Source of the DNA: Flavicella sediminum
Lineage (GTDB): Bacteria > Bacteroidota > Bacteroidia > Flavobacteriales > Flavobacteriaceae
DNA: 64,000 nt
NCBI RefSeq assembly: GCF_006381105.1
Contig: NZ_VDET01000002.1
Span: 965,578-1,029,577 of the forward strand
Reading direction: 5' to 3'
The notes under the pieces were generated by a model. It ran no database searches. It saw only the letters and a list, made by a program, of their open reading frames with translations, and was not told where the DNA came from. Made by a program: the position numbers and the translations under genes. Of the stretch, positions 28,059-45,025 are shown one piece after another. Numbering within the stretch: position 1 is the stretch's first letter; every line of letters starts with the position of its first letter.

Positions 28059-28802
28059 TTATTTAGACGACAAACGTCTTAATTTTGCATCTATCTGATC
28101 CATTCTATCTTCTAGCTTCGAAACAAATTTTGGATACCTTTTCAACAACACACAAGAGACTTTCCAAAAATAAATTTCAGAATCTAAAGCCACGGTTATT
28201 GGCGCAATACGAATATGGTCCGCCAATAATTCGTAATTCTCCGTCGACTTGCGATATCTTCTAATAAATAAATTAGCATTTGCCAAAACAACAACAACAT
28301 CGTCTTCCTCCAACTCACTAGGCAAACTTTTTTCACCAATCACAACATCACCAGGAAACAATCCTTCTTCATTAGAAACCATATTTAAATCTTGTACCGC
28401 AAAGGCCAACAATTCAGAACCACCTTCTAAAGGAATCGTAATTTTAGGCAAAGAACCGTAACTCTTCGACCCGATAAAATCGTCTATAAACATTTTACCA
28501 TTCAAGTCATTTACAAAAGGGACTTCTGCAAAACCCGCTTTTACTACATGATTTACATCCGTTGTAATCCCACCATTAAAACTCAGCAATTGATTGACGG
28601 TAATCTCTTTTGTTAAAATATCGTCTATAGATATGCTAAAATAATTAGCAACCTTTATAATCGTATCTATCTTCGGCTCACTTCTACCCTCTTCATACGC
28701 ACCTAAAGTCGCTCTCTTTAAAGAGAATAAGTCGGCAAAAGCCTGCTGACTCAATTTTTTTACACCTCTAATTTTTTTAACATTTTTTCCGAAAAAAGAC
28801 AT
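28059..28802 (-). CDS. XRE-family HTH regulator with a C-terminal LexA/CI-like (S24-fold) domain; catalytic Ser-Lys dyad not evident
   Basis: 247 aa. N-terminal HTH: KLSQQAFADLFSLKRATLGAYEEGRSEPKIDTIIKVANYFSISIDDIL. C-terminal beta-rich domain (GDVVIGEKS...VVVVLANANLFIRRY) resembles the S24 fold. Divergent from the pspA-containing block. Confidence 0.55.
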   Translation of the reverse strand: MSFFGKNVKKIRGVKKLSQQAFADLFSLKRATLGAYEEGRSEPKIDTIIKVANYFSISIDDILTKEITVNQLLSFNGGITTDVNHVVKAGFAEVPFVNDLNGKMFIDDFIGSKSYGSLPKITIPLEGGSELLAFAVQDLNMVSNEEGLFPGDVVIGEKSLPSELEEDDVVVVLANANLFIRRYRKSTENYELLADHIRIAPITVALDSEIYFWKVSCVLLKRYPKFVSKLEDRMDQIDAKLRRLSSK

Positions 28803-29003: not shown

Positions 29004-29399
29004 ATGAAAGACCAATTTAACACCATTAAAAATTACTTGCTAGAGTTGAACTACAACATCACTCATGAAGACGAACAAGAAGGAATCCTGATGATTCAAA
29101 ATCGCAATGAAGGGATTGACAATTTAATTATAGGTATTGCCAGTCCAATTTTAATTATTGAACAATATATTTTCAAAATCAACAAGCCTAGCGAAAATAT
29201 CTTCCAGCAATTACTTCAAAAAAACAGAGACATAGTCCACGGAGCATTTGTACTTGACGAAACAGGAGAGAAAGTCATTTTTAGAGACACTTTACAAATT
29301 GAAAACATCGACTTGAACGAATTAGAAGGATCTATAAATTCATTGAGTTTATTACTAAGTGAATATTCCGAAAACATCATCCAGTTTTCCAAAGCCTAA
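29004..29399 (+). CDS. YbjN-domain protein (CesT/Tir-chaperone-like putative sensory transduction regulator)
   Basis: 131 aa, acidic, with an alpha/beta pattern typical of YbjN. Known as a recurrent PspA neighbour. Confidence 0.55.
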   Translation: MKDQFNTIKNYLLELNYNITHEDEQEGILMIQNRNEGIDNLIIGIASPILIIEQYIFKINKPSENIFQQLLQKNRDIVHGAFVLDETGEKVIFRDTLQIENIDLNELEGSINSLSLLLSEYSENIIQFSKA

Positions 29400-29471
29400 A
29401 TAAAATCCCTCAAAGCAATTCTTAGAGCCATTAAACCCACTAGCGGAAACAACCCTTATAAAACACATATC

Positions 29472-30170
29472 ATGAACATATTTAGAAGATTATTTAACGT
29501 AAGTAAAGCCGAAGCCCATTCTGCAATTGACAAAATGGAAGACCCAATCAAAATGACTGAACAAGGGATTCGCGACATGAAAAACGACTTAACACAAGCC
29601 CTTGAAGGACTTGCCCAAGTAAAAGCCATGTTGATCCGTTCTCAAAACGACAAAACGCAGTTTGAAACCAAAGCAAAAGATTATCAAAACAAAGCCATGC
29701 TTATTTTACAAAAAGCACAAAAAGGAGATCTTTCTGCTGAAAATGGAGATCGCTTAGCAAAAGAAGCTTTGATCAAGAAAGAAGAAAACACAGAACATGT
29801 AAATCGTTGCTCCATTGAAATAGACAAATTTTCAAAATCTGTTTCTCAATTAGAAACCAACGTAAACAGCCTGAAAAATAATATTAGCAAATGGGAAAAT
29901 GAATTAAAAACCCTTAAAGCTCGTGTAAAAGTATCTACCGCTACCAAGAATTTAAACAAACAAATGGCAGCCATTGATAGTTCTAGTACGGTAAACATGC
30001 TAGAAAAAATGAAAGAAAAAGTAACACAAGAAGAAGCTTTAGCAGAAGCCTATGGTGATATTGCCAATGACTCGAAAAGTATTGACGAAGAACTTGACAA
30101 AGCCTTAGACGGTAAAAGTACCAACGCCGATAACGATCTAGAAGCCCTAAAAAAACAAATGGGATTGTAA
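29472..30170 (+). CDS. pspA: Phage-shock protein A / IM30 (Vipp1) family, ESCRT-III-like
   Basis: 232 aa. MNIFRRLFNVSKAEAHSAIDKMEDPIKMTEQGIRDM... aligns with E. coli PspA (MGIFSRF...EDP...) over the whole coiled-coil length. Confidence 0.85.
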   Translation: MNIFRRLFNVSKAEAHSAIDKMEDPIKMTEQGIRDMKNDLTQALEGLAQVKAMLIRSQNDKTQFETKAKDYQNKAMLILQKAQKGDLSAENGDRLAKEALIKKEENTEHVNRCSIEIDKFSKSVSQLETNVNSLKNNISKWENELKTLKARVKVSTATKNLNKQMAAIDSSSTVNMLEKMKEKVTQEEALAEAYGDIANDSKSIDEELDKALDGKSTNADNDLEALKKQMGL

Positions 30171-30230
30171 AATTATTTCCCTAAGTTTAACCCTCGTTAG
30201 ACTTAGGGTTTAACAAAAAATTGCTACGAA

Positions 30231-30941
30231 ATGACCTTATACGAATTAGTGTTTTCACCCATAAACACACCACTGACATTATTATTAATTGCACTAACCG
30301 TATACAGAGTTGTTACCATGCTTTTTGGCCTTGACTTCGATTTTGACATTGATGTAGATCTTGATATCGATGTGGATGTTGACATAGACAACGACTTATC
30401 TATAGACAGCAGCGGTATGGATTTAGAAGATATTGCGAACCTTGAATTGAAAAACGAAACCATCGTAAAAGACAAAACTAAATCTTTAAAATGGTGGCAA
30501 GTCGTTTTAATTTACTTCAACTTCGCCGAGCTTCCCTTTATGTTTACCCTAACTTCTTGGGTGTTTTTTTGGTGGTTTATTACCGTTCTCGGAACCTACA
30601 TCACCTTAAGTCATCATAATGCTTTCGGACTTATAATTTTCTTAGCAGCTATATTGCCTTCATTAATTGTAAACAAAATATTTACCACACCTTTTAAAAG
30701 TATTTTTAAAAAACTAGAACGAAAAGGTGTCACTTCTATAGACTTACTTGGAAGAGAAGCAATTCTAGATTCAAATTTAACAGGTGATAAACTAGGACGC
30801 GTAAAAGTAAAAGTAGGATCCGATCCAATGATTATTTACGCAAAATCTATAGACGGAAAAACACTAAAAGTGGGTGAAAAAGTCTTAATCATTGACCAAT
30901 CAAAGGACAAAAAATATTACTATATCAAAAATAACTATTAA
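30231..30941 (+). CDS. NfeD/YqiJ-like membrane protein with a C-terminal OB-fold domain and an Asp-hydrophobic alternating repeat
   Basis: 236 aa. N-terminal TM helix, then DFDFDIDVDLDIDVDVDIDNDLSID (nt 30333-30407), 3-4 TM helices, and a C-terminal soluble beta domain (GDKLGRVKVKVGSDPMIIYAKSIDGKTLKVGEKVLIID) like the NfeD short-form OB fold. Sits directly upstream of flotillin with an 11-bp gap, as yqiJ sits before yqiK in E. coli. Confidence 0.6.
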   Translation: MTLYELVFSPINTPLTLLLIALTVYRVVTMLFGLDFDFDIDVDLDIDVDVDIDNDLSIDSSGMDLEDIANLELKNETIVKDKTKSLKWWQVVLIYFNFAELPFMFTLTSWVFFWWFITVLGTYITLSHHNAFGLIIFLAAILPSLIVNKIFTTPFKSIFKKLERKGVTSIDLLGREAILDSNLTGDKLGRVKVKVGSDPMIIYAKSIDGKTLKVGEKVLIIDQSKDKKYYYIKNNY

Positions 30942-30952
30942 AAAAAATTACT

Positions 30953-33049
30953 ATGAATTTAACTATGATTTCCCTTTCACTAACAGACATTGCCTCTTCC
31001 ATGATTGGAATTGCCATTGGCGGACTAGCAGGACTGGTATTACTATTCGTGCTTTTTGTAGCCATGTTCTACAAAAAAATTCCTCAAGGGGAAGCTATTA
31101 TCAAAACAGGTTTCGGAGGAACGCATGTAGCATTTGACAAAGGAATGTATGTTATTCCTGTTCTTCATAAAGTGGAAATCATGGACATTTCCGTAAAAAA
31201 GATTGAAGTCGAGCGTATGTTAGAAGATGGTCTTATTTGTAAAGACAATATGCGAGCAGACATAAAAGTAGCTTTCTTTGTAAGAGTAAACAAATCGAAA
31301 GATGCTATTATAGAAGTAGCTCAAACCATTGGTTGCGAAAGAGCTTCTGCAGAAGAAACTTTGTACGAATTGTTCGAAGCAAAATTTTCTGAAGCCTTAA
31401 AAACCGTTGGTAAAAAATTCATGTTTACAGAATTGTACGAAGCTCGTAGAGAATTTAGAGATGAAATTATCAACATTATTGGTACCGATTTAAACGGCTA
31501 CACACTGGAAGACTGTGCGATTGATTACCTGGAACAAACTCCGATTAAATACTTAAAAGCAGATAATATTTTAGATGCGGAGGGGATTAAAAAAATCACA
31601 GAGCTTACAGCAATTCAAAACATGAAGTCTAACTTGATCAAACGTGATGAAGAAAAAGTCATTCGCAAACAAGATGTAGAAGCACGTGAAGCAATTTTAG
31701 AATTAGACAAACAATTGGCTGAAAAAGAAGAGCAACAAAAAAGAGAAATTGCCAATATAAAAGCCAGAGAAGGAGCTGAAATTGCTAAAGTTGGTGAAGA
31801 AGAACGTTTAAAATCTGAAACAGCCAGAATTGCTACAGAAGAAAAAGTAAAAATTGCAGAAGAAAACAAAGACCGTCAAATTATTGTTGCTGCTAAAAAC
31901 AAAGAACGTACGGAAGTTGTTGAAACGGAAAGAGTATTAAAAGACCAACAACTAGAGGCTACTGAAAGAGTAAAAGTTGTGGCACTTGCCGATATTGAAA
32001 AAGAGAAAGCCGTTGAAGTGGAGAAAAAGAACATTCAAGATGTTATTCGCGAACGTGTTGCCTTAGAAAAAGGTGTGGTAGAAGAACAAGAATTAACAAA
32101 AGATATTGAAGCATTTAAAACAGCAGATCGTGACAAACAAGTAGCGATTACCATTGCCGAACAAGATGCCGAAGCTCAATTGATTAGAATTACCAAAGCT
32201 GCCGAAGCGCAAAAAGAAGCTGCCAAACAAAAAGCAGAAGAAATCAACATTGACGCACAGGCCAAAAAAGAAGCTTCGACTAAAGAAGCGGAAGCTAGAA
32301 AAATATTAGCCGATGCTCAAGCCAAAGAAGAAGCAACCATCGGTCTTTCTGAAGCACAAGTACTGCATGCCAAAGCAGATGCTCACGAACGTGAAGGAAT
32401 TGTAGAAGCAAGCATTATTGAAAAAACCGCACTTGCCGAAGCTGTAGGAATTGAAGCAAAAGCAGAAGCTGTTAAAAAACAAGGTTTAGCTGAAGCTGAA
32501 GTTATTAGAGAAAAAGCCATTGCAGATGCTGCCGGTATTGAAGAAAAAGCAGAAGCAATGAAAAAACTTGATGGTGTTGGAAAAGACCACGAAGAGTTTA
32601 AACTAAGACTGGATAAAGAATTACAAGTAGACTTAGCTGAAATAAACATCCAAAAAGAAATTGCAGATGCACAAGCTGACGTAATTGGAGAAGCATTGAA
32701 AGCTGCAAATATTGATATTGTTGGTGGTGAAACAATGTTCTTCGATCAAATTATTGGGCAAATTACACGCTCTAAAGGTATCGACAGATTGGTCAATCAT
32801 TCTGAAAACATCACCGAAGTAAAAGATGCTATCTTAGGTTCTAACGACGTAAAAGGAAATCTATTAGAAAAAGTAAAAGGTTTTGCTCAAGACTACGGAA
32901 TTGGCTCTGAGGATATCAAAAACTTAACAATCTCTAGCTTATTATTGAAACTTCAAGGTGAAGCAGACTCTAACGATCAAAGAAATTTATTTTCTAATCT
33001 ATCCAACCTTTCCAAAGCACTTGGCTTAAGTGATAAGAAATTAAGTTAA
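30953..33049 (+). CDS. Flotillin (SPFH/band-7) family protein with an extended Glu/Ala-rich coiled-coil tail
   Basis: 698 aa. N-terminal TM anchor. SPFH core (KTGFGGTHVAFDKGMYVIPVLHKVEIMDISVKKIEV). About 350 aa of EA-repeat coiled coil with internal near-duplications: AEAVGIEAKAEAVKK / ADAAGIEEKAEAMKK. Confidence 0.85.
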   Translation: MNLTMISLSLTDIASSMIGIAIGGLAGLVLLFVLFVAMFYKKIPQGEAIIKTGFGGTHVAFDKGMYVIPVLHKVEIMDISVKKIEVERMLEDGLICKDNMRADIKVAFFVRVNKSKDAIIEVAQTIGCERASAEETLYELFEAKFSEALKTVGKKFMFTELYEARREFRDEIINIIGTDLNGYTLEDCAIDYLEQTPIKYLKADNILDAEGIKKITELTAIQNMKSNLIKRDEEKVIRKQDVEAREAILELDKQLAEKEEQQKREIANIKAREGAEIAKVGEEERLKSETARIATEEKVKIAEENKDRQIIVAAKNKERTEVVETERVLKDQQLEATERVKVVALADIEKEKAVEVEKKNIQDVIRERVALEKGVVEEQELTKDIEAFKTADRDKQVAITIAEQDAEAQLIRITKAAEAQKEAAKQKAEEINIDAQAKKEASTKEAEARKILADAQAKEEATIGLSEAQVLHAKADAHEREGIVEASIIEKTALAEAVGIEAKAEAVKKQGLAEAEVIREKAIADAAGIEEKAEAMKKLDGVGKDHEEFKLRLDKELQVDLAEINIQKEIADAQADVIGEALKAANIDIVGGETMFFDQIIGQITRSKGIDRLVNHSENITEVKDAILGSNDVKGNLLEKVKGFAQDYGIGSEDIKNLTISSLLLKLQGEADSNDQRNLFSNLSNLSKALGLSDKKLS

Positions 33050-33062
33050 AAATACAAACTGC

Positions 33063-33095
33063 TCTATGCTTCCTTAAAACATAGAGCAGTTATTC
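33063..33095 (+). terminator. Perfect 10-bp stem-loop after the flotillin gene; possible partial terminator or attenuator
   Basis: CTGCTCTATG-cttccttaaaa-CATAGAGCAG followed by a moderately T-rich tract. Lies in the 256-bp gap before the giant ORF. Confidence 0.4.
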
Positions 33096-33305
33096 TATAA
33101 AATCATTATTCGTCAATTGGCTACCGACCAAAAACAACACTTTTATCAAAGTCATTAACTATAGACTTCAAAACACATAGTTCTGGGGCGTCCATTAGAA
33201 ATTCTCGAAGAAACAAAAACTGTCCATTTGAATAATTTCAAAACATAAAGACCTCACAAAGAGCATAAAAAAACTGCTACAAGGAATAAAGAAGACCGCA
33301 ACAAA

Positions 33306-36300
33306 ATGAAAAAAAACGCTATAACACTTGAAGGAGGAACTTATGAAATCATCCAAAACAGACTGCAAAATCATAAAAGTGACTTGGTGGAACGTTTGCA
33401 AGTTTTAAACACCGACAGAAAAGACATTTTTGGAGCCGTTGAAACCAAATTAATTGCGAATGACAGAATAAACACCGAGAATTCTTGTATTGCCAGAGAT
33501 ATAGTTTCTTTTGGGAATATTTGTTTATTTGGATACAATGTCCATTTTGGTTTGCGTTCAGAAATAAAATTAGCCGATGTATTCAGTGTTTATAAATTTC
33601 ATGAAAACAGATTTCAGCTACAAGACTTAACTTTTATCAACCAAGAAGCATTTGTCACTGATTTTAAAAATTTATACAAATACTATAGAAATACTTTTTT
33701 CACAAAATTCATGCTTACCGAGCAATACCTATACATGGTATTTCAAATTGGTGAAGAAATCAGCGATATCAAAGCTTTTAAATGGCTGGTAAAAAACAAC
33801 CAAATAAGCTACATCGACAATAGAAGTGATCATGAATACAAATTCCCTAACCAACACGAATTTAATTGGCAGGAAGTTAATTATGACAATTTCAGAAAAG
33901 GCGCACATCCTCATGTTTCTATTTTAGACAAGGTTTTTGTTGAAACTATTGGCGGTGATTTAACCATTAAAATAGAAGACAATTCTCAATCGGGCTTAGG
34001 AATTTATGCCGAACCTGTTGATAACAAAGACCAGACTTTAGATGACGGACAGTACAGATATGCCGACTTAGGTAACTTGACGGTTTTAGAAATTACACCT
34101 TACCTAGAGGAAGCACGTTATTTTGTGTACAACCATAAAGTACAAGAGGTAGCCCGAATTCAAAGCATAAAAGATACCGCAGTATTGTTGCCAGACGACC
34201 AAGGATTAATTTTTCCGGAAGGTTATTATTTACAGACAGGTACATTAAAAAAATTCGACAGAACTGTCAACAACGTAAAATTTCAGAAAAAAGTAGCCTC
34301 TCCTAATGGAGAAGATTTCTTATATGTTTTTTATGAAGAAACAGCTGGAGATTATGTGCTAATGCACTACAATATTATTGAGCAAAATATTCACCCACCC
34401 ATAATTTGCAACGGTTTTACACTTTTAGAAAACGGAGAACTCTCCTATTTTAAATCGGAAAATGAAGCGAATAAACATCATGTTATTCAAATTTGGCAAA
34501 CGCCATTTTCCAAAAAAATTAAATCCAATCCTGCCCATAGCGATTCACTTTTATACAAAATTGGAAACAAAGACATTGTAAAGGCCATGGCGGAATGCCA
34601 GGAACTAATTACACTTCTAAACAAAGAAGATAATTATGATGGTTTGTACAACGACATCGCCAAACAAAGCATTGATATAGTCGATTCTTATTATTGGATT
34701 TCAGAAAAAGAAACATCCAACTTAAGCGAACCCCTTACAGAAATAAACAGCACGGCAAATTCTGCCATTGATGAATTTGAGAAAGTAGTTCAGTTAAAGA
34801 AAATCGCCGCAGAGGTCACTGAAAATTTAGAAGCCGAAATTCAGAAACTTTTTGACAACATTAAACACAGCACCTTTAATTCTATTGATGATTTTGTTCA
34901 ACTTTTAACCCGATTAAGAGGCTCTCAAGGAAATTCAATTTCGCTAAAAGAAACACGCTATATAAACATAGAGCGCTTAGACGAAATCAATGAAACTATA
35001 AAGGAAGAAACGGAACGAATTTCAAGAAGATGTATTACTTTTTTACTGAATAAAAAGGCTTTAGACCCCTATCAAAAAAGAATTCAAGAGAAAAATAAAG
35101 TCTTAACCGAGTTAACAAAAGTAATTGAAGGAAAAGACTTAGAAGCAAGCATCAATCAGATAAGTGCCGACCTTGAATTACTAATAGATATTGTCAATAA
35201 TTTAGATATTGAAGACACCTCACATTCCACCACTATAATTGATAATATTTCTTTATTATTTGCAGAAATAAATCAATTAAAAGCAGGTGTAAAAAGAAAA
35301 GTTCAAAGCTTAAATGCCAAAGAAAGCAAAGCTGATTTTATTGCCCAATTAAAATTATTTGACCAAAGTATCATCAATTTTATTGATATAGCCAACACTC
35401 CTGAAAAATGTGAAGAATACCTTACCAAACTTTCGGTACAACTGGAAGAATTGGAAGGGAAATTTGCCGATTTCGATGAATACATTACAGAAATCATCAA
35501 CAAAAGAGAGGAAGTTTATAGCGCTTTTGAAAACAGAAAAAACACCTTAGTTGAAGCCAGAAACAAAAAAGGAATCGCCCTTCAAAATGCTTCTGAAAGA
35601 ATTTTAAAAAGCATTCATAAAAAAGCGGCAACTTTTAAAACAGAAGAAGAAATCCACGGTTATTTTGCTTCCGATATTATGGTGAATAAATTGCACAATA
35701 TTATTGAGCAATTACAAGAGCTAGAGGAAACAGGAAAAGCAGAAACCCTGCAAACCAATTTAAAATCGGCAAAAGAAGAGGTTCTTAGAAAATTAAAAGA
35801 CAGCTTAGATTTATACGAAGATGGCGATTCTGTCATCAAACTAGGAAAGCACAAATTTGGTGTTAACAAACAAGCCCTAGACTTAAATATTGTCAATAAA
35901 AACGGAGACTTATTTTTCCATTTGTCAGGAACCGATTTTCATGAAAAAATTGAAAATGAAGTTTTAAACTTATCCAAAGATATATGGAATCAAGATTTGA
36001 TTTCTGAAAATGAACATGTTTATCGATCTGAATTTTTAGCTTATAAAATATATCAAAAATACCCCCTTGCTTTCTTACTAGAAAAAACGACTGAAAACCT
36101 TGTGGAGCTAGTCAAACAAGAAAGCAGTGAAAACTATTCTGAAGGCTATGTAAAAGGTGTACACGATTTAGATGCGGCAGTCATTTTAAAACTTCTTATT
36201 CAAACAGAAAACGATTTACAATTATTGCGATTTACTCCAGTTACAAGGGCCAATGCGCAATTGTTTTGGAATCAATTAGAAAACGAAACAAAACAAGCTT

Positions 36301-38120
36301 TAAACCATAAAATAAAAGCAACAGGTGCAATTTTAAACATCTTTCCAGCATCCAAAGAATACCAAAGTTGTTTAGAAGCTATTTTAGATTTATTGCCAAG
36401 AAAAGAAAATTCTATTGCCAATTACCTATTTCAAGAAATAAAACAAAACGATCATTTTATTGTAAGTCAACAAGCCTTTGACTTAAAAACTGAATTTGTC
36501 AACTTTTTAAAAACAAAAGAAGTCTGGTCTAATTTTGAAAAATCATTGAATAATTTTACATCAGTCACCGACAGACTAGAATTGTGTACCCAATGGTTAA
36601 AATCGTATTGCAATACAACAGCTAGCAACTATGAATTTTACATTGCAGAAAGCGTTGTGCTGTTATTATTTAACAACCTACAACTACCTTATACTGCAAA
36701 TGAAACCCTGGAATCAAAAGAATTAAGAGGAGCACATTCACAAATTGTAGACGGCCTATACAGCTTTAACTATTTCGACTTTATTACTCGATTGTCAGAA
36801 TTTAACAACACTGTTGTAAAGCGATTTACAGACTACAAAGAGACTAAAAAAGAAATCATAGCAAACAAAAAAAGAAAATTAAAACTGAATGAGTTCAAAC
36901 CAAAAGTGCTTTCTTCTTTTGTTAGAAATAAATTGATCAATCAGGTTTACTTACCTCTTTTTGGAGATAACTTATCAAAACAATTGGGAACTGTTGGTCA
37001 CAACAAACGTACCGACCGTATGGGAATGCTATTGCTGATATCTCCACCAGGATATGGAAAAACAACCTTAATGGAATATATTTCAGAAAGATTGGGCTTG
37101 GTGTTTATGAAAATAAACGGTCCTGCTATCGGACATGAAATTACATCTGTAGACCCAATGGCAGCGAATAATTCTGCCACCAAACAGGAATTGGAAAAAC
37201 TAAATCTTGCTTTTGAAATGGGAAACAATGTGATGTTGTACCTAGATGATATTCAACATTGCAACCCAGAGTTTTTACAAAAATTTATATCGCTTGCAGA
37301 TGGACAGCGAAAAATAGAAGGCGTTTACAAAGGGGAAACAAAAACCTACGATTTTAAGGATAAAAAATTCTGTGTAATCATGGCCGGAAACCCTTATACA
37401 GAAAGCGGTGATAAATTCCGAATTCCAGATATGTTAACCAACCGTGCAGATATTTACAATTTAGGAGATGAAATTGGAGAAACGGAAAACTTATTCAAAT
37501 TAAGTTTGATAGAAAATGCACTGACATCCAACGATACTTTACGTCAATTAAGCAGTAAAAATTTCGATGATCTTTATACTTTAATAAACCATATTGAACA
37601 AAAAAGTACAGAAAGTATTGATTTAAAAGGAAACCATTCGCCACAAGAAATTAACGATTATATTTCTGTTTTAGAAAAAGTAATTAGCCTAAGAAACACG
37701 GTAGTAAAAGTAAATGAACAGTATATAAAATCTGCGGCAACAGAAGACGCCTACCGAACTGAACCAGCATTTAAACTACAAGGATCGTATAGAGACATGG
37801 GAAAATTGACGTCTAAAATTGTTCCTATTATGAATGCCAATGAGCTAGACAGTTTGTTATTGAGTCACTATGAAAGTGAATCACAAACACTAACCTCAGC
37901 AGCAGAAGCCAATTTATTAAAATACAAGGAAATGACTTCTTCTTTAACAAATGAAGAAGCCCTAAGATGGGAAAATATTAAAGAAACCTTTGTAAAAAAC
38001 AACAAGTTAAAAGGTTTTGGAAATCAAAATGAAATGGCACAGGTTTTACAACAACTGATGGATTTTTCTGAAAATTTAGAAGGCATCAAAGATGTTCTAA
38101 AAAACGGATTTGAAAAGTAA
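33306..38120 (+). CDS. Giant (1604-aa) cytoplasmic protein of unknown function with a C-terminal AAA+/P-loop NTPase module
   Basis: Uninterrupted ORF with no signal peptide or TM segment. Walker A LLLISPPGYGKTTL (nt 37026-37070). Walker B VMLYLDDIQ (nt 37230-37256). Sensor-1-like CVIMAGNPYT (nt 37371-37400). The first ~1200 aa have no motif I recognise; the central part is E/K/L/I-rich and looks helical or coiled-coil. Confidence 0.7.
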   Translation: MKKNAITLEGGTYEIIQNRLQNHKSDLVERLQVLNTDRKDIFGAVETKLIANDRINTENSCIARDIVSFGNICLFGYNVHFGLRSEIKLADVFSVYKFHENRFQLQDLTFINQEAFVTDFKNLYKYYRNTFFTKFMLTEQYLYMVFQIGEEISDIKAFKWLVKNNQISYIDNRSDHEYKFPNQHEFNWQEVNYDNFRKGAHPHVSILDKVFVETIGGDLTIKIEDNSQSGLGIYAEPVDNKDQTLDDGQYRYADLGNLTVLEITPYLEEARYFVYNHKVQEVARIQSIKDTAVLLPDDQGLIFPEGYYLQTGTLKKFDRTVNNVKFQKKVASPNGEDFLYVFYEETAGDYVLMHYNIIEQNIHPPIICNGFTLLENGELSYFKSENEANKHHVIQIWQTPFSKKIKSNPAHSDSLLYKIGNKDIVKAMAECQELITLLNKEDNYDGLYNDIAKQSIDIVDSYYWISEKETSNLSEPLTEINSTANSAIDEFEKVVQLKKIAAEVTENLEAEIQKLFDNIKHSTFNSIDDFVQLLTRLRGSQGNSISLKETRYINIERLDEINETIKEETERISRRCITFLLNKKALDPYQKRIQEKNKVLTELTKVIEGKDLEASINQISADLELLIDIVNNLDIEDTSHSTTIIDNISLLFAEINQLKAGVKRKVQSLNAKESKADFIAQLKLFDQSIINFIDIANTPEKCEEYLTKLSVQLEELEGKFADFDEYITEIINKREEVYSAFENRKNTLVEARNKKGIALQNASERILKSIHKKAATFKTEEEIHGYFASDIMVNKLHNIIEQLQELEETGKAETLQTNLKSAKEEVLRKLKDSLDLYEDGDSVIKLGKHKFGVNKQALDLNIVNKNGDLFFHLSGTDFHEKIENEVLNLSKDIWNQDLISENEHVYRSEFLAYKIYQKYPLAFLLEKTTENLVELVKQESSENYSEGYVKGVHDLDAAVILKLLIQTENDLQLLRFTPVTRANAQLFWNQLENETKQALNHKIKATGAILNIFPASKEYQSCLEAILDLLPRKENSIANYLFQEIKQNDHFIVSQQAFDLKTEFVNFLKTKEVWSNFEKSLNNFTSVTDRLELCTQWLKSYCNTTASNYEFYIAESVVLLLFNNLQLPYTANETLESKELRGAHSQIVDGLYSFNYFDFITRLSEFNNTVVKRFTDYKETKKEIIANKKRKLKLNEFKPKVLSSFVRNKLINQVYLPLFGDNLSKQLGTVGHNKRTDRMGMLLLISPPGYGKTTLMEYISERLGLVFMKINGPAIGHEITSVDPMAANNSATKQELEKLNLAFEMGNNVMLYLDDIQHCNPEFLQKFISLADGQRKIEGVYKGETKTYDFKDKKFCVIMAGNPYTESGDKFRIPDMLTNRADIYNLGDEIGETENLFKLSLIENALTSNDTLRQLSSKNFDDLYTLINHIEQKSTESIDLKGNHSPQEINDYISVLEKVISLRNTVVKVNEQYIKSAATEDAYRTEPAFKLQGSYRDMGKLTSKIVPIMNANELDSLLLSHYESESQTLTSAAEANLLKYKEMTSSLTNEEALRWENIKETFVKNNKLKGFGNQNEMAQVLQQLMDFSENLEGIKDVLKNGFEK

Positions 38121-38532
38121 TCGTATGCAAATTAAATCGCCAGCCAGCTTCTTTAATTACTATAAAGATTGTTACAAGTTAGACTATAAATACATTGAAA
38201 AACTAGAAAACAAACTATTTTATCGACCTTATTGGGTATCCTGGCCAATTTAATAACGCTTTTACTACAGAACGTTACAAAACCTTTGCTCGAGTTGGAA
38301 TAAGCACCATACCTTTACATTACCGATTTTGGAATGAAAACAAAACACAAGCAAAACAAAAACTAATACATCTCATAAATAAATAAATAAAGTACAAGTA
38401 TTAATTATACACCCCATCAATTTCAATTGAAGGTTAAGTACAACAAAAGAATAAAATAAAGTCTCGACTCCGCTCGACCTGACATAGAAACAAATTTGAT
38501 AATTATTATCAACTACTAAAAAGAAAACACAC

Positions 38533-39084
38533 ATGGGAATATTTGATTTTTTCAAGAAAAAAGAAAAAGAAAGACATTTTGATCCGACCAACATTACTGT
38601 AAGAGACTTAGGCAAAGGATACATTTTTGAATACATAATAGAAACTTGGACCGTTACCGCTTTGTTTGAATACGACTGGGGCGACAATTATTTTACCCGA
38701 GAGTTTATCATTAAAAACGGTACTATTGAAAAGTATTTAGAACTTGAGGATGATGGTGGCTTGGTTGTTACCATTTCCGAAAAAGTAAAACTGAGAAAAT
38801 TAGGTGACGAGGTGTGTGATTATATAGACAAACACGAAAAACCGCCTAAAAAAATAAACTTCGAAGGCGTTCAATATTTCCTTGATGAAAAATCTCCTGG
38901 CTTCTCTAAAGAAATTGATGCTGCCAACTGGGAAGAACTTATTTCCTACGACTACCTAGACAAAGAAGAAGAAAAAACACTTTGCATAGTTCAGTATGGC
39001 GACGAAGAATTTGAAGTAAGCAAAGGAACGATTATTAGTGAACTGGCTATTTCTAATATATTACCTGTGGCAGACAATTATTAG
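38533..39084 (+). CDS. DUF4178-like (B. subtilis YdjI-like) protein
   Basis: 183 aa, soluble and acidic, with conserved aromatic and acidic blocks (YDWGDNYF, FEGVQYF, CIVQYGDEEFEV). Family assigned from memory. YdjI is encoded in the B. subtilis pspA-ydjGHI operon. Confidence 0.5.
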   Translation: MGIFDFFKKKEKERHFDPTNITVRDLGKGYIFEYIIETWTVTALFEYDWGDNYFTREFIIKNGTIEKYLELEDDGGLVVTISEKVKLRKLGDEVCDYIDKHEKPPKKINFEGVQYFLDEKSPGFSKEIDAANWEELISYDYLDKEEEKTLCIVQYGDEEFEVSKGTIISELAISNILPVADNY

Positions 39085-39121
39085 TCTTCAAAACTCTAAC
39101 TTTGATTTTAAATTAATTCGA

Positions 39122-39919
39122 ATGAAAACACTCAAAACACTACTCTTCACAAGCGTACTACTTCTCGTAATTTCTTGCGGAAAAGAAGTCCGTAAAAAGT
39201 ATCTTAAATCGCCTTTAGACAACATCATCACTACATATATTGATGTACAAAACTACAGCGTTATCCTAGCGGATATGGATTATAAAGAGGCTACCGACAA
39301 GTATTTTCACAAGTACAAAATCATACTAGAAAAAAACAATGCTACAAAATCTACCGAAGATGATTTTGACATAACTACAACAGATTGGAAGGAAGTTTCT
39401 GCCATTACTTTTGAAGAGCACCAGCAAGATTTAGGAATGACCGTACTTTCTAAAAAAGACGGTGTGTTAGACAAAAAAGCAACACCCGCTGGCTACAACA
39501 ACTATGTAGGTAACAACAAATACGGAAACTGGCAAAGACAAAGCAACGGTACTTCTTTTTGGGTATTTTATGGGCAATACCATTTTATGAGATCTATGTT
39601 CTATGGTTCTAGCCATAGGTACTACAGAAATGATTATGATTATTACAGAACCAACCATTACGGAAGAAGTAATTACTATGGTAGAACTAATAATTTTGGA
39701 ACCTCTACGTATAAAAACACAAGTTCTAGCTGGACTGCCAAACCCAAAACATTTAAAGACAAGGTAAGAAGCAATGTAAAAAGAAGTTCTTCCGCTCTAA
39801 AATCAAAAGGGTACAGCTCTAGTAAAAGTTACAAAAGCTCAAACCAAACAACAAGAAACACAAACAGATACAGCAGCTCAAGTTCTTCACGCTCTCGTAG
39901 TGGCGGATTTGGTAAATAA
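39122..39919 (+). CDS. Lipoprotein with a Tyr/Arg/Ser/Asn/Gly-rich low-complexity C-terminal half
   Basis: Start at the ATG at 39122 (MKTLKTLLFTSVLLLVISCGKE, signal peptide plus lipobox Cys). The track ORF begins upstream at 39038. C-terminus reads ...YYRNDYDYYRTNHYGRSNYYGRTNNFG...SSSSSSRSRSGGFGK. Confidence 0.5.
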   Translation: MKTLKTLLFTSVLLLVISCGKEVRKKYLKSPLDNIITTYIDVQNYSVILADMDYKEATDKYFHKYKIILEKNNATKSTEDDFDITTTDWKEVSAITFEEHQQDLGMTVLSKKDGVLDKKATPAGYNNYVGNNKYGNWQRQSNGTSFWVFYGQYHFMRSMFYGSSHRYYRNDYDYYRTNHYGRSNYYGRTNNFGTSTYKNTSSSWTAKPKTFKDKVRSNVKRSSSALKSKGYSSSKSYKSSNQTTRNTNRYSSSSSSRSRSGGFGK

Positions 39920-39937
39920 TATAAAAGCTAGAAAAAC

Positions 39938-40807
39938 ATGGACAAATACATCAATATTATCGAGTTATCACATTCCCTTGGATACATCGTCAGCGGCTTT
40001 ATCATTTTTATCATTGGAAAAATTGCCTACAAATTACTTCACCCAAATATCAACATTCAACACGAACTAGTTGAAAAAGATAATTTTGCTTTTATCCTTT
40101 CGTATGTCGGTTATTTTGCCGCTTTAATAACAGCCATTGGTGGCGCTATTGTTGGCGAAAGTTATGATTTTGTAACTGACATCCTGCATATTTTTATGTA
40201 CGGAGGTATCGCTATTGTATTGTTATTATTGGCCGCATGGATTAGCAATAAAGTTATTCTAAATAAATTCGATCTTAAAAAAGAAATTATTACAGATAAA
40301 AACGAAGGTTCAGGAGTTATTGAAGCGGCTATTTATATGGCAAACGGACTTATTTTATACGGTGCTTTGGTGGGCGAATCTGAAACTTTAGTAGAAGGAA
40401 TTACCACTTTTATTATTTATTGGCTGATTGGAAATACAGTTCTTATTCTAGCTTCCAAACTATTTATTACTTGGATGAGCTACGACATTCATGCTGAAGT
40501 AGAAAAAGACAATGTAGCGGCTGGAATTAGTTTTTCTGGGGCTATACTCGCTATAGGAATTATTACCATGAATGCTATTTTAGATCCTTTTATTGATTGG
40601 ACTACAACAATTATAGACATCAGTTTGCAAACAATACTAGGTTGTTTACTACTGCCTATTATGCGTGTTTTTGCAGATAAAATTTTATTACCTGGAAGAA
40701 AACTTACCGATGAAATTATCAACCAAGAAAAACCAAATATTGGTGCCGGTTTGATTGAAGCCTTCGCCTATATCGCTTCTGCAATATTAATTACATGGAG
40801 TATCTAA
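39938..40807 (+). CDS. DUF350-like (E. coli YjfL-like) polytopic membrane protein with a repeated unit
   Basis: 289 aa. Four copies of an [ED]K[DPN]N-plus-hydrophobic-helix unit: EKDNFAFILSYVGYFAALITAIGG, DKNEGSGVIEAAIYMANGLILYG, EKDNVAAGISFSGAILAIGIITMN, EKPNIGAGLIEAFAYIASAILITW. Stop overlaps the next gene by 13 bp. Confidence 0.6.
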   Translation: MDKYINIIELSHSLGYIVSGFIIFIIGKIAYKLLHPNINIQHELVEKDNFAFILSYVGYFAALITAIGGAIVGESYDFVTDILHIFMYGGIAIVLLLLAAWISNKVILNKFDLKKEIITDKNEGSGVIEAAIYMANGLILYGALVGESETLVEGITTFIIYWLIGNTVLILASKLFITWMSYDIHAEVEKDNVAAGISFSGAILAIGIITMNAILDPFIDWTTTIIDISLQTILGCLLLPIMRVFADKILLPGRKLTDEIINQEKPNIGAGLIEAFAYIASAILITWSI

Positions 40808-42351
40808 AACAAAATTCTTTTGTATTAAAAGCCGCTATTTTTGCAACAGGTTTTGCAGGAATAGTAGCTGAATATACTCTTTCTACACTGGCCACCTATT
40901 TTATTGGAAATTCAATTTTTCAATGGACCATGATTGTCTCCTTGATGCTATTTTGCATGGGACTGGGAAGTAGATTGAGTAAATTAATTACAAAAAATTT
41001 AATTCAGAATTTTTTAATTCTAGAAACCACACTTTCGCTAATTGTTGCTTTTTCTTCGGTTTTGGTGTACACCCTTGCTTCGGTTAGTGAATACTACGGA
41101 ATTGTAATTTATTCCTTGAGTATGATTATCGGATTGCTGATTGGTTTAGAAATTCCATTGGTGGTTAGAATTAATAAAGAATACGAAGACTTAAAAAGCA
41201 ACATCTCTTCCATTTTAGAAAAAGACTATTATGGAAGTTTAATTGGCGGTGTATTTTTTGCCTTTATCGGCTTACCAATATTGGGCTTATCGTATACGCC
41301 TTTTGTCCTTGGAATTATTAATTTCTTAGTCGCACTCATTGTATTTTATCGTTTTAAAGACAAAATCAACAAGCAGCATACCTTTCGATTAAAAGCTGTT
41401 TTAACGGTGGTTTTTGCTATTTTAATTACAGGGATTGCCTTTACTGAACCTATTATTCAGTGGGGAGAACAGAAAAAATTCAAAGACAAAGTCATTTATT
41501 CTGCACAAACCAAATACCAAAATATTGTTTTAACCGAATGGAAAAAGGAACACTGGTTGTACTTAAATGGAAATTTACAATTCTGCTCCATTGATGAAAA
41601 AATGTATCACGAACCTTTGGTACACCCCATCATGCAATTGCACCCAAATCCGCAACGAATTTTAATTTTAGGTGGTGGCGATGGTTGTGCGGTTCGTGAG
41701 ATACTAAAATACCCAAGTGTTGAAAAAATTGACATGGTTGATTTAGATCCAAAAATGACAGATTTAGGAACACAGCACCCTGTTCTTATAAACATCAACC
41801 AAGGCAGCATGAACAGTGAAAAATTGAGTGTAATTAACAAGGATGCCTACATTCATTTGGAACAAAACACAAGTGACTTTTACGACATTATTATTGCCGA
41901 TTTACCTGACCCAAGAAACATTGAGCTTGGAAGGTTGTATTCTCATGAATTTTATTCGCTTTGCAATAGAAAACTAAGACCCAACGGCTTTATCATTACC
42001 CAAGCCGGAAGTCCGTATTTTGCTACAAAAGCTTATCACTGTATTGGAAAAACAATGCAATCAGCTGGTTTTACAACCGTAAACTTACACAATCAAGTAT
42101 TGTCTATGGGCGAGTGGGGTTGGATATTAGGAACAAAGAACACAGCGACAAACGCAAAGCAACTCAAGGAAAAATTACAAAGTATTGATTTCAAAAATGT
42201 AGAAACAAATTGGATCAACAACGAAGCTATGCAACTAATTACTTCTTTTGGAAAAGATTTTTTTAAACTAAATGATACTAGTGAAATTAATAAAGTCCAC
42301 AACCCTGTACTTTATCAATATTATTTAGATGGAAACTGGGATTTATATTAA
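40795..42351 (+). CDS. speE: Membrane-anchored polyamine aminopropyltransferase (spermidine/spermine synthase with an N-terminal ~7-TM domain)
   Basis: 518 aa. Residues 1-215 are polytopic. The C-terminal domain has ILILGGGDGCAVREILKY...VDLDPKMTDL...IIIADLPDP...FYS, the spermidine-synthase GGGDGG and D-L-D/ADLPDP signature. Confidence 0.8.
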   Translation: MEYLKQNSFVLKAAIFATGFAGIVAEYTLSTLATYFIGNSIFQWTMIVSLMLFCMGLGSRLSKLITKNLIQNFLILETTLSLIVAFSSVLVYTLASVSEYYGIVIYSLSMIIGLLIGLEIPLVVRINKEYEDLKSNISSILEKDYYGSLIGGVFFAFIGLPILGLSYTPFVLGIINFLVALIVFYRFKDKINKQHTFRLKAVLTVVFAILITGIAFTEPIIQWGEQKKFKDKVIYSAQTKYQNIVLTEWKKEHWLYLNGNLQFCSIDEKMYHEPLVHPIMQLHPNPQRILILGGGDGCAVREILKYPSVEKIDMVDLDPKMTDLGTQHPVLININQGSMNSEKLSVINKDAYIHLEQNTSDFYDIIIADLPDPRNIELGRLYSHEFYSLCNRKLRPNGFIITQAGSPYFATKAYHCIGKTMQSAGFTTVNLHNQVLSMGEWGWILGTKNTATNAKQLKEKLQSIDFKNVETNWINNEAMQLITSFGKDFFKLNDTSEINKVHNPVLYQYYLDGNWDLY

Positions 42352-42353
42352 GT

Positions 42354-42662
42354 ATGAAGACAACCTACAAACATATTGAAGCAAATATTTACAGTCATAA
42401 AATTTGGTCTGCTTGCACCGAGCCTTCAGCACTTAAAGAAACTTATGGCGGTTTATTAAAGGAAGTCGATTTTACGATTATTCTCTTTAATGAACATCAT
42501 TTTCCAGAACAAGGCTACACCTGTTTTTGGTTATTAGGTGAAAGTCATTTGGCCATACATACCTTTCCAGAAAGTGGCAAAAGTTATATTGAATTGAGCA
42601 GTTGCAATAAAGAAAAATTAGACTTATTCGTTGACAAGGAAAAAAGTATAAACCTGAAATAA
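42354..42662 (+). CDS. Small pyruvoyl-dependent S-adenosylmethionine decarboxylase proenzyme (SpeH/class-1-like)
   Basis: 102 aa. LLGESHLAIHTFPESG matches the AdoMetDC self-cleavage (E-S) and catalytic-site signature. Starts 2 bp after the speE stop. Confidence 0.65.
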   Translation: MKTTYKHIEANIYSHKIWSACTEPSALKETYGGLLKEVDFTIILFNEHHFPEQGYTCFWLLGESHLAIHTFPESGKSYIELSSCNKEKLDLFVDKEKSINLK

Positions 42663-42663
42663 A

Positions 42664-43440
42664 ATGAAAAAAAAAGTTAGAGATTTTATCAACCACAACA
42701 AAACCTTTATCAAATTCATTTATGCGCTAATTGTCTTAAATATCATTGCCTTAATTCTAGAGTCTTATGAGGAATTAAATGCCCAATACAGCCATATTTT
42801 TTATTATTTCGAACTGTTTTCAGTTGCTATTTTTACCGTGGAATACTTTATCCGAATTTGGGTTTCTGACAAAACAAAAGAAGACAAAAAAGAACGACTC
42901 AACTTTGCTTTCTCTACCTTAGGAATCATCGATTTGATTGCCATACTTCCCTTTTACCTTCCCTTTATTTTTCCTATCGATTTAAGAATTGTTCGTATAC
43001 TTCGCTTGTTTCGTTTGTTAAGAATTTTTAAACTAAGTCGCTATTCAAAATCACTAAAAACCATCCAGTATATTTTTAAAGAAGTAAAAGGAGAACTTTC
43101 CATCACCGTATTTGTCACTTTTGTTTTGATGATTTTATCTTCAACACTTATGTACTATATAGAACATGACGACCAACCAGAGCAATTTGCAAGTATTGGC
43201 GATGCTTTTTGGTGGTCTGTAGCAACACTAACAACCGTTGGCTATGGAGATGTTTACCCTGTAACCGGCCTAGGAAAATTATTAAGTGGAATTATTGCCT
43301 TGATCGGAATTGGTTTTGTAGCACTACCTACAGGAATTATCAGTTCTGCCTTTATTGCAAAAATACAAGCAGAAAAAAAACAGAAAAAGAAGAAAACCAT
43401 GTGTAACTGTCCACATTGTGGGAAAAATTTCGACTTATGA
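42664..43440 (+). CDS. Voltage-gated K+ channel (6-TM Kv-like) with a C-terminal CxCxxC zinc-ribbon-like tail
   Basis: 258 aa. S4 voltage sensor RIVRILRLFRLLRIFKLSRYSK. Selectivity filter TTVGYGDVYP. C-terminal ...KKKKTMCNCPHCGKNFDL. Starts 1 bp after the AdoMetDC stop. Confidence 0.8.
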   Translation: MKKKVRDFINHNKTFIKFIYALIVLNIIALILESYEELNAQYSHIFYYFELFSVAIFTVEYFIRIWVSDKTKEDKKERLNFAFSTLGIIDLIAILPFYLPFIFPIDLRIVRILRLFRLLRIFKLSRYSKSLKTIQYIFKEVKGELSITVFVTFVLMILSSTLMYYIEHDDQPEQFASIGDAFWWSVATLTTVGYGDVYPVTGLGKLLSGIIALIGIGFVALPTGIISSAFIAKIQAEKKQKKKKTMCNCPHCGKNFDL

Positions 43441-43976
43441 TTCCTAACAAATACATCATACAGTTTGTCATCTTATTATATGTTATCTATATAGTGAGCC
43501 TTGTTTTTCCCATAACAAAATTTGGAATTGTTCCAAGAACAACACAAGGACTTGCAGGAATTTTTACGGCTCCATTTTTACATGGCGGAATTTGGCACCT
43601 TGTTTCCAATACCATTCCTTTGCTTGTGTTACTTACTGTATTAAATCATTTTTATCCTAAAAAAACCATAGCGGTTGTGCTATTTATTATTGTTGCTAGC
43701 GGAATACTGGTATGGATTTTTGCAAGAAAAGCAAACCACATAGGGGCTAGCGGACTTATATACGGACTTGCCACATTTTTAATTTTAAATGGATTTTTGG
43801 AACAGAAATTTGTTTCCATACTTGTTTCATTAGCCGTAGCCTTACTCTATGGTGGATTGATCTGGGGAATTTTTCCTTCAGTCAGATCCTATATATCTTG
43901 GGAAGGACATTTATTTGGAGCCGCATCAGGTGTGTTTATTGCCTTTTTATTAAAAAACAAAGCTTTGTACACCTAA
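43437..43976 (+). CDS. Rhomboid-family intramembrane serine protease
   Basis: 179 aa from the ATG at 43437 (ATGA overlap with the K+ channel stop; the track start at 43416 is a TTG). TM2 HxxxN (WHLVSN). Catalytic GASGLIYG. TM6 His in EGHLFGAASG. Confidence 0.75.
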   Translation: MIPNKYIIQFVILLYVIYIVSLVFPITKFGIVPRTTQGLAGIFTAPFLHGGIWHLVSNTIPLLVLLTVLNHFYPKKTIAVVLFIIVASGILVWIFARKANHIGASGLIYGLATFLILNGFLEQKFVSILVSLAVALLYGGLIWGIFPSVRSYISWEGHLFGAASGVFIAFLLKNKALYT

Positions 43977-44581: not shown

Positions 44582-45025
44582 TTATAATTTACGCCAGTTT
44601 TCATCTGCCTTCTTTTTCAAAACCTCTGCCCCTTCCTCATTCCATAGCTTTAAGGTATTTATTCCCCATGAATTGTAAAACAAATACAATTTACCATCTC
44701 TAATTTCAAAAGTTTTAGGATTTATATCTACTTTTTCATTTTTCGCCCCTATTGCATAGCCACACCAACCACCATACTGAGGTTGGTATTTTTTAGGATT
44801 GGCTTTAAATTTCTTTAAATTTTCAGCCGAAGAAAACTTGTATTTTACACCTTCAATTTCCGTTACAAAAGCTTTTTCACCTTCGGTAGCCTTGTCCTCA
44901 AAATAAGCCACCACATCATAGCCATCTGCAGCAAAACCTTTTTTATTTGTGTTCGTAGTTTGTTGTGCAAAAAGGGATGACGCCCCCAATACAACTAACA
45001 AAATAAATATTCTTTTTTTCCACAT
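44582..45025 (-). CDS. YHS-domain (TRASH-like metal-binding) secreted protein
   Basis: 147 aa, signal peptide, YDVVAYF...YQPQYGGWCGYAIG, the YHS-domain pattern. Confidence 0.5.
   Translation of the reverse strand: MWKKRIFILLVVLGASSLFAQQTTNTNKKGFAADGYDVVAYFEDKATEGEKAFVTEIEGVKYKFSSAENLKKFKANPKKYQPQYGGWCGYAIGAKNEKVDINPKTFEIRDGKLYLFYNSWGINTLKLWNEEGAEVLKKKADENWRKL

Follow-up and report, generated by a model that had tools for sequence, protein, structure and literature searches.

An alternating aspartate-hydrophobic tract in loop 1 of a YqiJ-type flotillin partner from Flavicella sediminum

Closest described systems

The NfeD/YqiJ proteins are near-universal, functionally obscure partners of bacterial SPFH/flotillin scaffolds. 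In a member of this group encoded by Flavicella sediminum, the loop that follows the first transmembrane (TM) helix contains a long alternating (Asp-x)n tract. The gene is located in a 64,000-nucleotide stretch of contig NZ_VDET01000002.1, which was analysed as a whole and is referred to here as the window. The tract represents a concrete, cheaply testable candidate for a sensing or assembly element of PspA-flotillin systems. If it were a spacer only, it would still be a useful hallmark for annotating a clade that is missed by Pfam.

The YqiJ protein of E. coli (DUF1449; domains YqiJ_N and YqiJ_OB) resembles the host protein of the tract in its predicted N-out TM1, loop 1, the motif FFN/YLN-x-G-x-x-P, TM2-TM3 and a C-terminal OB-fold, and its gene is likewise located immediately upstream of a gene for a YqiK-type flotillin. 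The two proteins differ in loop 1, where YqiJ has an Asp/His vestige and the window protein has 12 alternating Asp residues, and only YqiJ reaches the Pfam thresholds. The NfeD proteins, including B. subtilis YuaF/NfeD2, P. horikoshii PH1510-C/PH0471, E. coli YbbJ and S. aureus NfeD, also combine a membrane-anchored C-terminal OB-fold with an SPFH partner, whereas an alternating acidic tract is not described for them in the literature searched and their identity to the host protein is below 20-25%.

A class of operons with genes for CesT/Tir, PspA, flotillin, AAA+ and YqiJ/YuaF proteins has been described by Ravi, Aravind and co-workers (mSystems 2024, PMC11237479), and exactly this gene set is present at 29004-38120 of the window. 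A second class in the same paper, linked to the phage shock protein (PSP) system and composed of DUF4178, DUF350/YjfL and TM-spermine synthase genes, follows at 38533-42351, the two classes being concatenated here. In the passages found, the "3TM YqiJ/YuaF protein" is presented only as a component and the acidic tract does not appear.

A synthetic 13-residue (Asp-hydrophobic)n peptide known as FD is a random coil when charged or in solution. Addition of Ca2+ produces a strong beta-sheet signal, and the peptide assembles more readily at low pH, with cations and at high (local) concentration (PMC9078708). The window tract, which opens DFDFD, follows the same pattern (at least five strict repeats), with 10 Asp-hydrophobic units among its 11 D-x units, and the behaviour of FD parallels the disorder predicted by AlphaFold2 (AF2) and the switch proposed below. 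FD is synthetic, free and 13 residues long, whereas the tract is predicted to be tethered to the membrane at both ends and contains mixed aliphatic residues. A cation- or pH-induced coil-to-beta transition is documented only for the synthetic peptide and is proposed for the natural tract; nature would then have its own version of the beta-sheet peptides designed to respond to cations.

Well-known Ca2+-binding Asp motifs include the DxDxDG motif of the EF-hand, the RTX nonapeptide GGxGxDxUx and the (Asp-Y)n sequences of mollusc shell matrix proteins, which have been modelled as a beta-strand with one carboxylate face toward Ca2+. The tract shares with these motifs the regular spacing of Asp carboxylates, whereas it lacks Gly turns, the DxDxDG/RTX consensus and flanking helices. 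Inspection of its sequence revealed no Gly, no DxDxDG and no GGxGxD, and Pfam scans matched the host protein to no calcium-binding family. In the (Asp-Y)n proteins, Y is Ser or Gly and the location is extracellular, whereas Y in the window tract is hydrophobic and the predicted location is cytoplasmic.

The family itself is already known, as are its OB-fold, the partnership with flotillin and the operon class. No prior description of the alternating Asp-hydrophobic tract as a hallmark of the family was found in the searchable literature, outside which most subscription-journal papers lie.

The tract, its host protein and its conservation

The alternating tract was confirmed as a real, protein-level selected feature of the YqiJ-type loop 1. 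The following features belong to the tract and its host gene:

30231..30941, + strand: YqiJ/DUF1449-type NfeD-family membrane protein of 236 residues, host gene of the tract
30267..30329, + strand: TM1, residues 13-33, an AF2 helix (13-32) with a predicted local distance difference test (pLDDT) score above 90; the tract begins two residues past its end
30333..30407, + strand: alternating (Asp-x)n tract, residues 35-59 of the 236-residue open reading frame (ORF) 30231..30941, DFDFDIDVDLDIDVDVDIDNDLSID
30408..30491, + strand: linker, residues 60-87, which completes loop 1 with acidic SSGMDLEDIANLE and then Lys-rich KNETIVKDKTKSLK
30492..30536, + strand: short interfacial helix and the most conserved motif of the family, WWQVVLIYFNFAELP, in which P102 is invariant
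30537..30713, + strand: TM2-TM3 helical hairpin, residues 103-161 (AF2 helices 103-125 and 131-164)
30741..30938, + strand: predicted C-terminal NfeD-type OB-fold beta-barrel, residues 171-236 (Foldseek, hmmsearch)
30224..30475, - strand: antisense ORF of 83 residues with a TTG start, most likely no gene

A first-pass annotation, made from the letters of the window, described the tract as a perfect 12-unit repeat. The alternation holds, with Asp at 12 of 13 alternate positions (35, 37 ... 59), but the repeat is not perfect. It consists of 11 strict D-x dipeptides, in which x is hydrophobic (F, I, V or L) in 10 and N in one, and is closed by S-I-D, Ser57 being the sole non-Asp residue among the alternate positions. 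Composition-preserving shuffles of the host protein contained a run of at least six D-x units in 11 of 200,000 cases. Translation of the window in all six frames gave no second long tract, and the other matches of at least four units were two four-unit runs.

The Asp codons of the tract are divided equally between GAC (six) and GAT (six). At periods 6 and 18, the nucleotide self-identity of the tract is 0.67 and 0.72, compared with 0.68 +/- 0.04 and 0.68 +/- 0.05, respectively, in simulated random-codon D-Phi tracts, and Tandem Repeats Finder reported no more than a weak array (18 nucleotides, 2.6 copies, 79%). Nucleotide periodicity therefore equals the random-codon expectation, which indicates selection on the protein and not DNA repetition and agrees with the first-pass view that the tract is no slippage repeat. 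The same annotation had dismissed the antisense ORF as an artefact of the repeat. Across (GAY NTN)n the antisense frame reads TCN-ANR, in which a stop codon is impossible, and this segment covers 25 of the 83 codons. Because of this stop-free frame and its location within a strongly conserved sense gene, the ORF is best taken as an artefact.

The tract is conserved in place and variable in length. Among the matches listed, all 120 close homologues (49-100% identity) contain an alternating acidic tract of 14-32 residues that starts at residues 35-37, so that its absence from close orthologues, which the first-pass annotation would have read as a strain-specific expansion, was not observed. More distant relatives were sought with the C-terminal 152 residues only, the tract being excluded to avoid circularity, against 1.84 billion representative proteins. 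In the 129 near-full-length relatives obtained (22-56% identity), at least four acidic residues stand in alternating register in 118, at least eight in 90 and at least ten in 62. The tract of these relatives usually starts at residue 41, behind a conserved G-x-x-D-x-x-x-[FL]. A further set of 80 related loci was collected from reference genomes with a motif-based alignment; it covers Bacteroidota only (Saprospiraceae, Cytophagales, Bacteroidales, Flavobacteriales) and shows 3-20 acidic positions in register. Strict (D/E-x) tracts of at least six units occur 63 times in the YqiJ ORFs of these loci and not once in the other 916,895 six-frame ORF residues.

Length changes preserve the register. 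The loop between two conserved anchors is of even length (28, 30, 32 ... 42) in 115 of 119 close homologues, which points to length change in dipeptide steps. Asp exceeds Glu by about 10:1 in the tracts. The partner positions are mostly occupied by V, I, F, L, M and A, among which the strong beta-formers V, I, F and L dominate, and their hydrophobicity is graded, with mean Kyte-Doolittle values of 3.1-4.0 beside TM1 and A, T and S distally. Tract length ranges across the family from almost nothing to about 80 residues. The extreme member is the metagenomic protein P0254 (L082:3598-4497), in which an alternating (Asp-x) tract of about 80 residues occurs in the usual context, followed by a 693-residue flotillin-like protein and a DUF3686 AAA+ ATPase.

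The register, the Asp bias, the pattern of partner residues and the specificity for YqiJ argue against two explanations, namely that the tract is a low-complexity expansion under no selection and that it is an acidic disordered spacer of a generic kind. A neutral expansion would arise by replication slippage and be merely tolerated. Its signs would be the weak 18-nucleotide array, the variation of close relatives in two-residue steps, as expected of 6-nucleotide slippage, and the abundance of (GAYNTN)n microsatellites in metagenomes. However, nucleotide periodicity is at the random-codon level, and the tract persists in place where the remaining protein falls to 22-30% identity. True microsatellite tracts are monotonous, (DL)n or (DI)n, whereas the window tract mixes F, I, V, L and N as well as codons. 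Neutral slippage is largely refuted by these results and is extremely improbable.

In a metagenome scan for (GAYNTN)8GAY (loci L085-L204), such microsatellites dominated the matches, and the scan says little on other protein families. Monotonous hexanucleotide microsatellites accounted for 107 of the 126 in-frame matches (about 85%). They encode repeats such as (DL)n, (DI)n, (DM)n and (DF)n in one frame, lie mostly in short fragments outside genes and have no relation to the YqiJ tract. Among the heterogeneous tracts, four or more hydrophobic residue types were found only in L114 and L172, both of which match the YqiJ C-terminal hidden Markov model.

A non-specific acidic spacer would be a disordered polyanionic brush that provides charge or distance and has no defined ligand or fold, for example by holding TM1 off TM2-3, repelling anionic lipids or nucleic acids, or filling the flotillin lumen. 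AF2 disorder, the extreme elasticity of length (0 to about 80 residues) and the lack of covariation with partner genes are all compatible with this role. Such a spacer should, however, tolerate Glu, odd-length indels and non-hydrophobic partners, in contrast to the Asp:Glu ratio, the even loops and the V/I/F/L gradient described above, and the His-Gly replacements in Actinomycetota are not anionic. The spacer explanation is accordingly regarded as doubtful.

Membership of the host protein in the family was established by profile comparison, fold search and BLASTP to E. coli YqiJ and YqiK. A Flavicella sediminum protein annotated as 'OB-fold-containig protein' matches the ORF with 100% identity, and relatives bear the name 'DUF1449 family protein'. 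Neither the host protein nor the flotillin obtained a match in Pfam or NCBIfam scans, and for the host protein Pfam gave none even at E<=10. The gathering scores of PF21001 (YqiJ_N) and PF07290 (YqiJ_OB) are not reached by the window protein, whereas E. coli YqiJ matches both families. A tract-bearing relative, P0224, passes YqiJ_N with 26.7 bits against a cut-off of 23 bits, and PF21001.3 is precomputed on several relatives. Since relatives pass PF21001 and the window protein does not, the latter is a divergent YqiJ/DUF1449 member that is linked to the family via intermediates only. A profile of 61 family sequences matched E. coli YqiJ in hhalign with a probability of 93.3% (E 2.7e-7, 129 columns). 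The alignment pairs residues 79-221 with 51-197 and covers the conserved FFN-x-G-x-x-P motif, TM2-TM3 and the C-terminal domain; in it, WWQVVLIYFNFAELP is equivalent to FFNxGxxP and to YLNIGRLP of E. coli YqiJ.

The AF2 model of the host protein, built on a diverse alignment, has a mean pLDDT of 83.8, with helices at 13-32, 88-95, 103-125 and 131-164 and beta-barrel strands at 176-234. The AF2 models agree with the first-pass placement of the tract between TM1 and the remaining TM helices. The pLDDT falls below 50 at residues 70-79 of the linker, a segment (60-87) that is confined to the Flavobacteriia subfamily. Foldseek searches with the C-terminal domain gave YuaF (2k14, E 5.3e-4) as the best match, followed by PH1510-C (3wwv, root-mean-square deviation 1.4 A, TM-score 0.83) and MTH693 (2k5h), and the profile matched YuaF in hmmsearch with an E-value of 0.028. 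The modelled domain thus appears to be the NfeD-type OB-fold of the NfeD superfamily. Homology to YqiJ/DUF1449, the architecture of TM1, loop, TM2-TM3 and small beta-barrel, and adjacency to flotillin were all found, and the identification of the host as an NfeD/YqiJ-like flotillin partner in the first-pass annotation is borne out.

Predicted topology and candidate roles

The tract is predicted to lie on the cytoplasmic face of the membrane. The OB-fold of NfeD is cytosolic and binds flotillin there in S. aureus (PMC11222466), and SPFH-NfeD cages face the cytoplasm (PMC13086221). Since only two TM helices lie between the tract and the OB-fold, the tract would be on the same side. The N-terminus of the window flotillin consists of a TM segment followed by YKK, which would put the bulk of flotillin in the cytoplasm. 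The family mean of Lys + Arg residues is 0.23 in the N-tail, 0.05 in the TM1 segment, 1.57 in loop 1, 0.10 in loop 2 and 4.25 after TM3. These sequence features suggest an N-out, loop-1-in, C-in topology, with the tract tethered to the membrane at both ends.

An alternative is a periplasmic or topogenic element, in which the acidic stretch is exported with the assistance of the proton-motive force (pmf) and binds periplasmic Mg2+ or Ca2+, or merely sets the orientation of TM1. The tract stands directly after TM1, acidic flanks can be translocated electrophoretically, and many of the carriers are marine, where Ca2+ and Mg2+ abound. The cytosolic OB-fold two TM helices away, the cytoplasmic bulk of flotillin and the Lys + Arg counts, which fit loop 1 inside, are against this alternative. 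In addition, tracts of 40-80 residues far exceed the needs of topology, and the His-Gly variants carry no negative charge. Such an element is very unlikely. A transmembrane beta-hairpin or Asp-lined pore was also considered and set aside, given the more than tenfold variation in tract length and the lack of a conserved turn.

The content of loop 1 differs among lineages. The loop of E. coli YqiJ, 'LDAHLDHYD', is a short mixed Asp/His vestige of the segment that the first-pass annotation had reported missing from this protein. Short versions such as DFDFADADADIDA occur in Cyclobacteriaceae and Marivirga, and D/H/G-rich loops occur in P0249, P0347 and P0348. In P0352 and P0353 from Kitasatospora (Actinomycetota), the loop after TM1 is poly(His-Gly), HGGHGVGHHPGHVGHGG. 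Metal-binding or near-neutral-titrating residues that alternate with small or hydrophobic ones are common to these loops. The Asp/His and His-Gly versions favour metal or proton binding over polyamine binding, and the replacement of the loop by His-rich types in other phyla suggests a ligand tuned by lineage.

The tentatively favoured reading, which is quite possible, is that the tract is a multivalent element of the inner-membrane surface that is a coil while charged, becomes an amphipathic sheet on neutralisation by protons or divalent cations, and is coupled to the flotillin/AAA+/PspA machinery. The tract would begin at the cytoplasmic end of TM1 and be tethered at its far end to the interfacial helix and TM2, lying along the cytoplasmic surface of the membrane, beneath the flotillin assembly or at its edge. 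The fully charged tract would be disordered. Its carboxylates may be neutralised by protons or divalent metals, with Mg2+/Ca2+ as candidates for the Asp versions and transition metals or protons for the His versions; cation binding of this kind is plausible. The neutralised tract would then form an amphipathic beta-strand with a carboxylate face and an aliphatic/aromatic face, the latter packing against the membrane or against adjacent copies. The cage of QmcA-YbbJ comprises 26 SPFH-NfeD heterodimers (cited in PMC13086221). If the YqiJ system resembles other SPFH-NfeD cages, each flotillin assembly would contain tens of tracts, and the response would be multivalent and cooperative. The element could thereby act as a local sensor or switch for ionic changes, for example the entry of protons or cations when the membrane is damaged, and feed the flotillin, AAA+ and PspA machinery.

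Several points weigh against the coil-to-sheet reading. The ligand binding that it assumes is inferred, as is the topology, the mean Lys + Arg count of loop 1 being only 1.57. The pmf can also drive the export of strongly acidic segments. Free cytoplasmic Ca2+ is normally very low, and Ca2+ would therefore act on influx only. Anionic lipids would repel an acidic face that has not been neutralised. The beta-strand proposed in the first-pass annotation is chemically plausible, but two AF2 monomer runs gave the tract a pLDDT below 50 and no secondary structure, compared with values above 90 in the rest of the protein, the linker residues noted above aside. In P0172, the tract is nearly gone and the gene context is unchanged. 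The wide length range and such near-tractless members in the same context indicate that the element is dispensable or replaceable in some lineages.

A bolder form of the coil-to-sheet reading is that the (Asp-hydrophobic)n loop is a membrane-damage sensor. The flotillin cage would keep tens of loops together on a single membrane patch, and these would stay disordered until a breach, when leaked protons or divalent cations would drive the formation of a cooperative beta-sheet at the inner leaflet that recruits or activates PspA and the giant AAA+ ATPase. This specific proposal is a long shot. PspA is a relative of ESCRT-III; if true, the proposal would describe a prokaryotic counterpart of Ca2+-triggered ESCRT-III membrane repair, with a ligand tuned per lineage (Asp, Asp/His or His-Gly).

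Gene neighbourhood and partner proteins

The genes around the host ORF are as follows:

29004..29399, + strand: CesT/Tir-like chaperone (Pfam PF22550, E 2e-57), facultative partner found in 31 of the 80 related loci
29472..30170, + strand: PspA/IM30 (Pfam PF04012, E 9e-43), facultative partner found in 32 of the 80 loci
30953..33049, + strand: YqiK-type flotillin of 698 residues, constant operon partner, 31% identical over 451 residues to E. coli YqiK (E 1e-53)
33306..38120, + strand: DUF3686-DUF7902-AAA+ ATPase of 1604 residues (Pfam, including AAA_5), frequent partner found in 55 of the 80 loci
38533..42662, + strand: YjfL/polyamine module with DUF4178, orf293, DUF350, a TM-fused spermine/spermidine synthase (40795..42351, +) and AdoMet decarboxylase (42354..42662, +), assigned by Pfam

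The gene content at this locus, with co-directional CesT_Tir_1, PspA_IM30, YqiJ-type, flotillin and DUF3686+DUF7902+AAA_5 genes, is that of the PspA-CesT/Tir-flotillin-AAA+ operon class (PMC11237479), in which the AAA+ ATPase has a beta-propeller region at its N-terminus. The flotillin gene starts 11 nucleotides after the host ORF, and a flotillin adjoins the YqiJ-type gene in 79 of the 80 related loci. A DUF3686-type AAA+ ATPase also adjoins P0254 and P0249, and the DUF4178/DUF350/spermine-synthase module is present in about eight of the 80 loci. Median tract length with and without a given partner is 10 and 11 for PspA, 10 and 12 for the AAA+ ATPase, and 10 and 10 for the polyamine module. 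Tract length therefore does not depend on these genes, and the link to a spermidine locus is true of the window and not general, flotillin being the sole constant partner.

The constancy of flotillin is relevant to a protein-docking role, in which the tract would pair as a beta-strand with the flotillin SPFH domain, the AAA+ beta-propeller, PspA or another YqiJ and would serve assembly or oligomerisation and not ion sensing. The alternation and the strong beta-formers suit strand addition. NfeD proteins have been proposed to promote SPFH oligomerisation (PMC13086221), and B. subtilis YdjH interacts with itself and binds YdjI and PspA (PMC8581546). However, a fixed docking site implies a fixed length, whereas the tract varies more than tenfold, and its length shows at most a weak correlation with that of flotillin (rho -0.23, p 0.07). 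A complementary alternating basic strand was not noticed in the partners, among which no systematic search was made. A docking strand is considered unlikely.

The first-pass annotation had also pointed to the synthesis of spermidine by the same locus, and the genes are indeed present in the same co-directional cluster, the TM-fused spermine/spermidine synthase and AdoMet decarboxylase being located 10-12 kb downstream on the same strand. It had proposed on this basis that the Asp ladder is a polyamine or divalent-cation sensor. As a polyamine sensor, the tract would bind the spermidine or spermine made by the downstream synthase and report polyamine levels to PspA/flotillin. Polyanions in general bind polyamines, and PspA-CesT operons have been proposed to monitor polyamines (PMC11237479). 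Against this, polyamine or YjfL-module genes are located within 10 kb in only six of the 45 full-length related loci, the tract occurring in the other 39 with the same median length, and His-rich and His-Gly loops would not bind polycations. The spacing of carboxylates on a strand confers no particular selectivity for polyamines. The polyamine-sensor idea is weakened by these observations and appears quite unlikely, and the interpretation given in the first-pass annotation is, taken as a whole, partly supported; the check that it had proposed showed the tract to be conserved and length-variable in close and distant homologues.

Pfam does not recognise the window flotillin (30953-33049), for which no match to Band_7 or Flot was obtained even at E<=10. 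Its counterparts of about 690 residues in the metagenomic loci L082:4501-6582 and L083:8750-10822 carry no precomputed Pfam domains, and Pfam seems to miss an entire clade of flotillins.

The two PSP-linked operon classes, described separately in PMC11237479, run concatenated and co-directional at 29004-43976 (+) of the window; L014, L019, L021, L023 and L044 are listed with the window for this concatenation. The polyamine module is followed by a voltage-gated-type ion channel of the K+/cation-channel type (42664-43440, +) and by a rhomboid protease (43416-43976, +). A YHS-domain protein of the metal-binding type (44582-45025, -) flanks the end of the cluster together with this channel, and the two could have a bearing on a function that involves ions. 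A divergent gene (28059-28802, -) located shortly before the CesT-PspA operon encodes a protein with HTH_3 and a weak Peptidase_S24-like (LexA/CI-type) match, which is a candidate for a stress-cleavable repressor of the cluster.

The gene orf293 (39038-39919, +; 293 residues, GTG start) overlaps the end of the DUF4178 gene by 47 nucleotides and has no Pfam match. It is conserved within the DUF4178-DUF350 module of seven related loci. Its called start may be too far upstream, and its product is possibly the uncharacterised lipoprotein component that is mentioned in PMC11237479.

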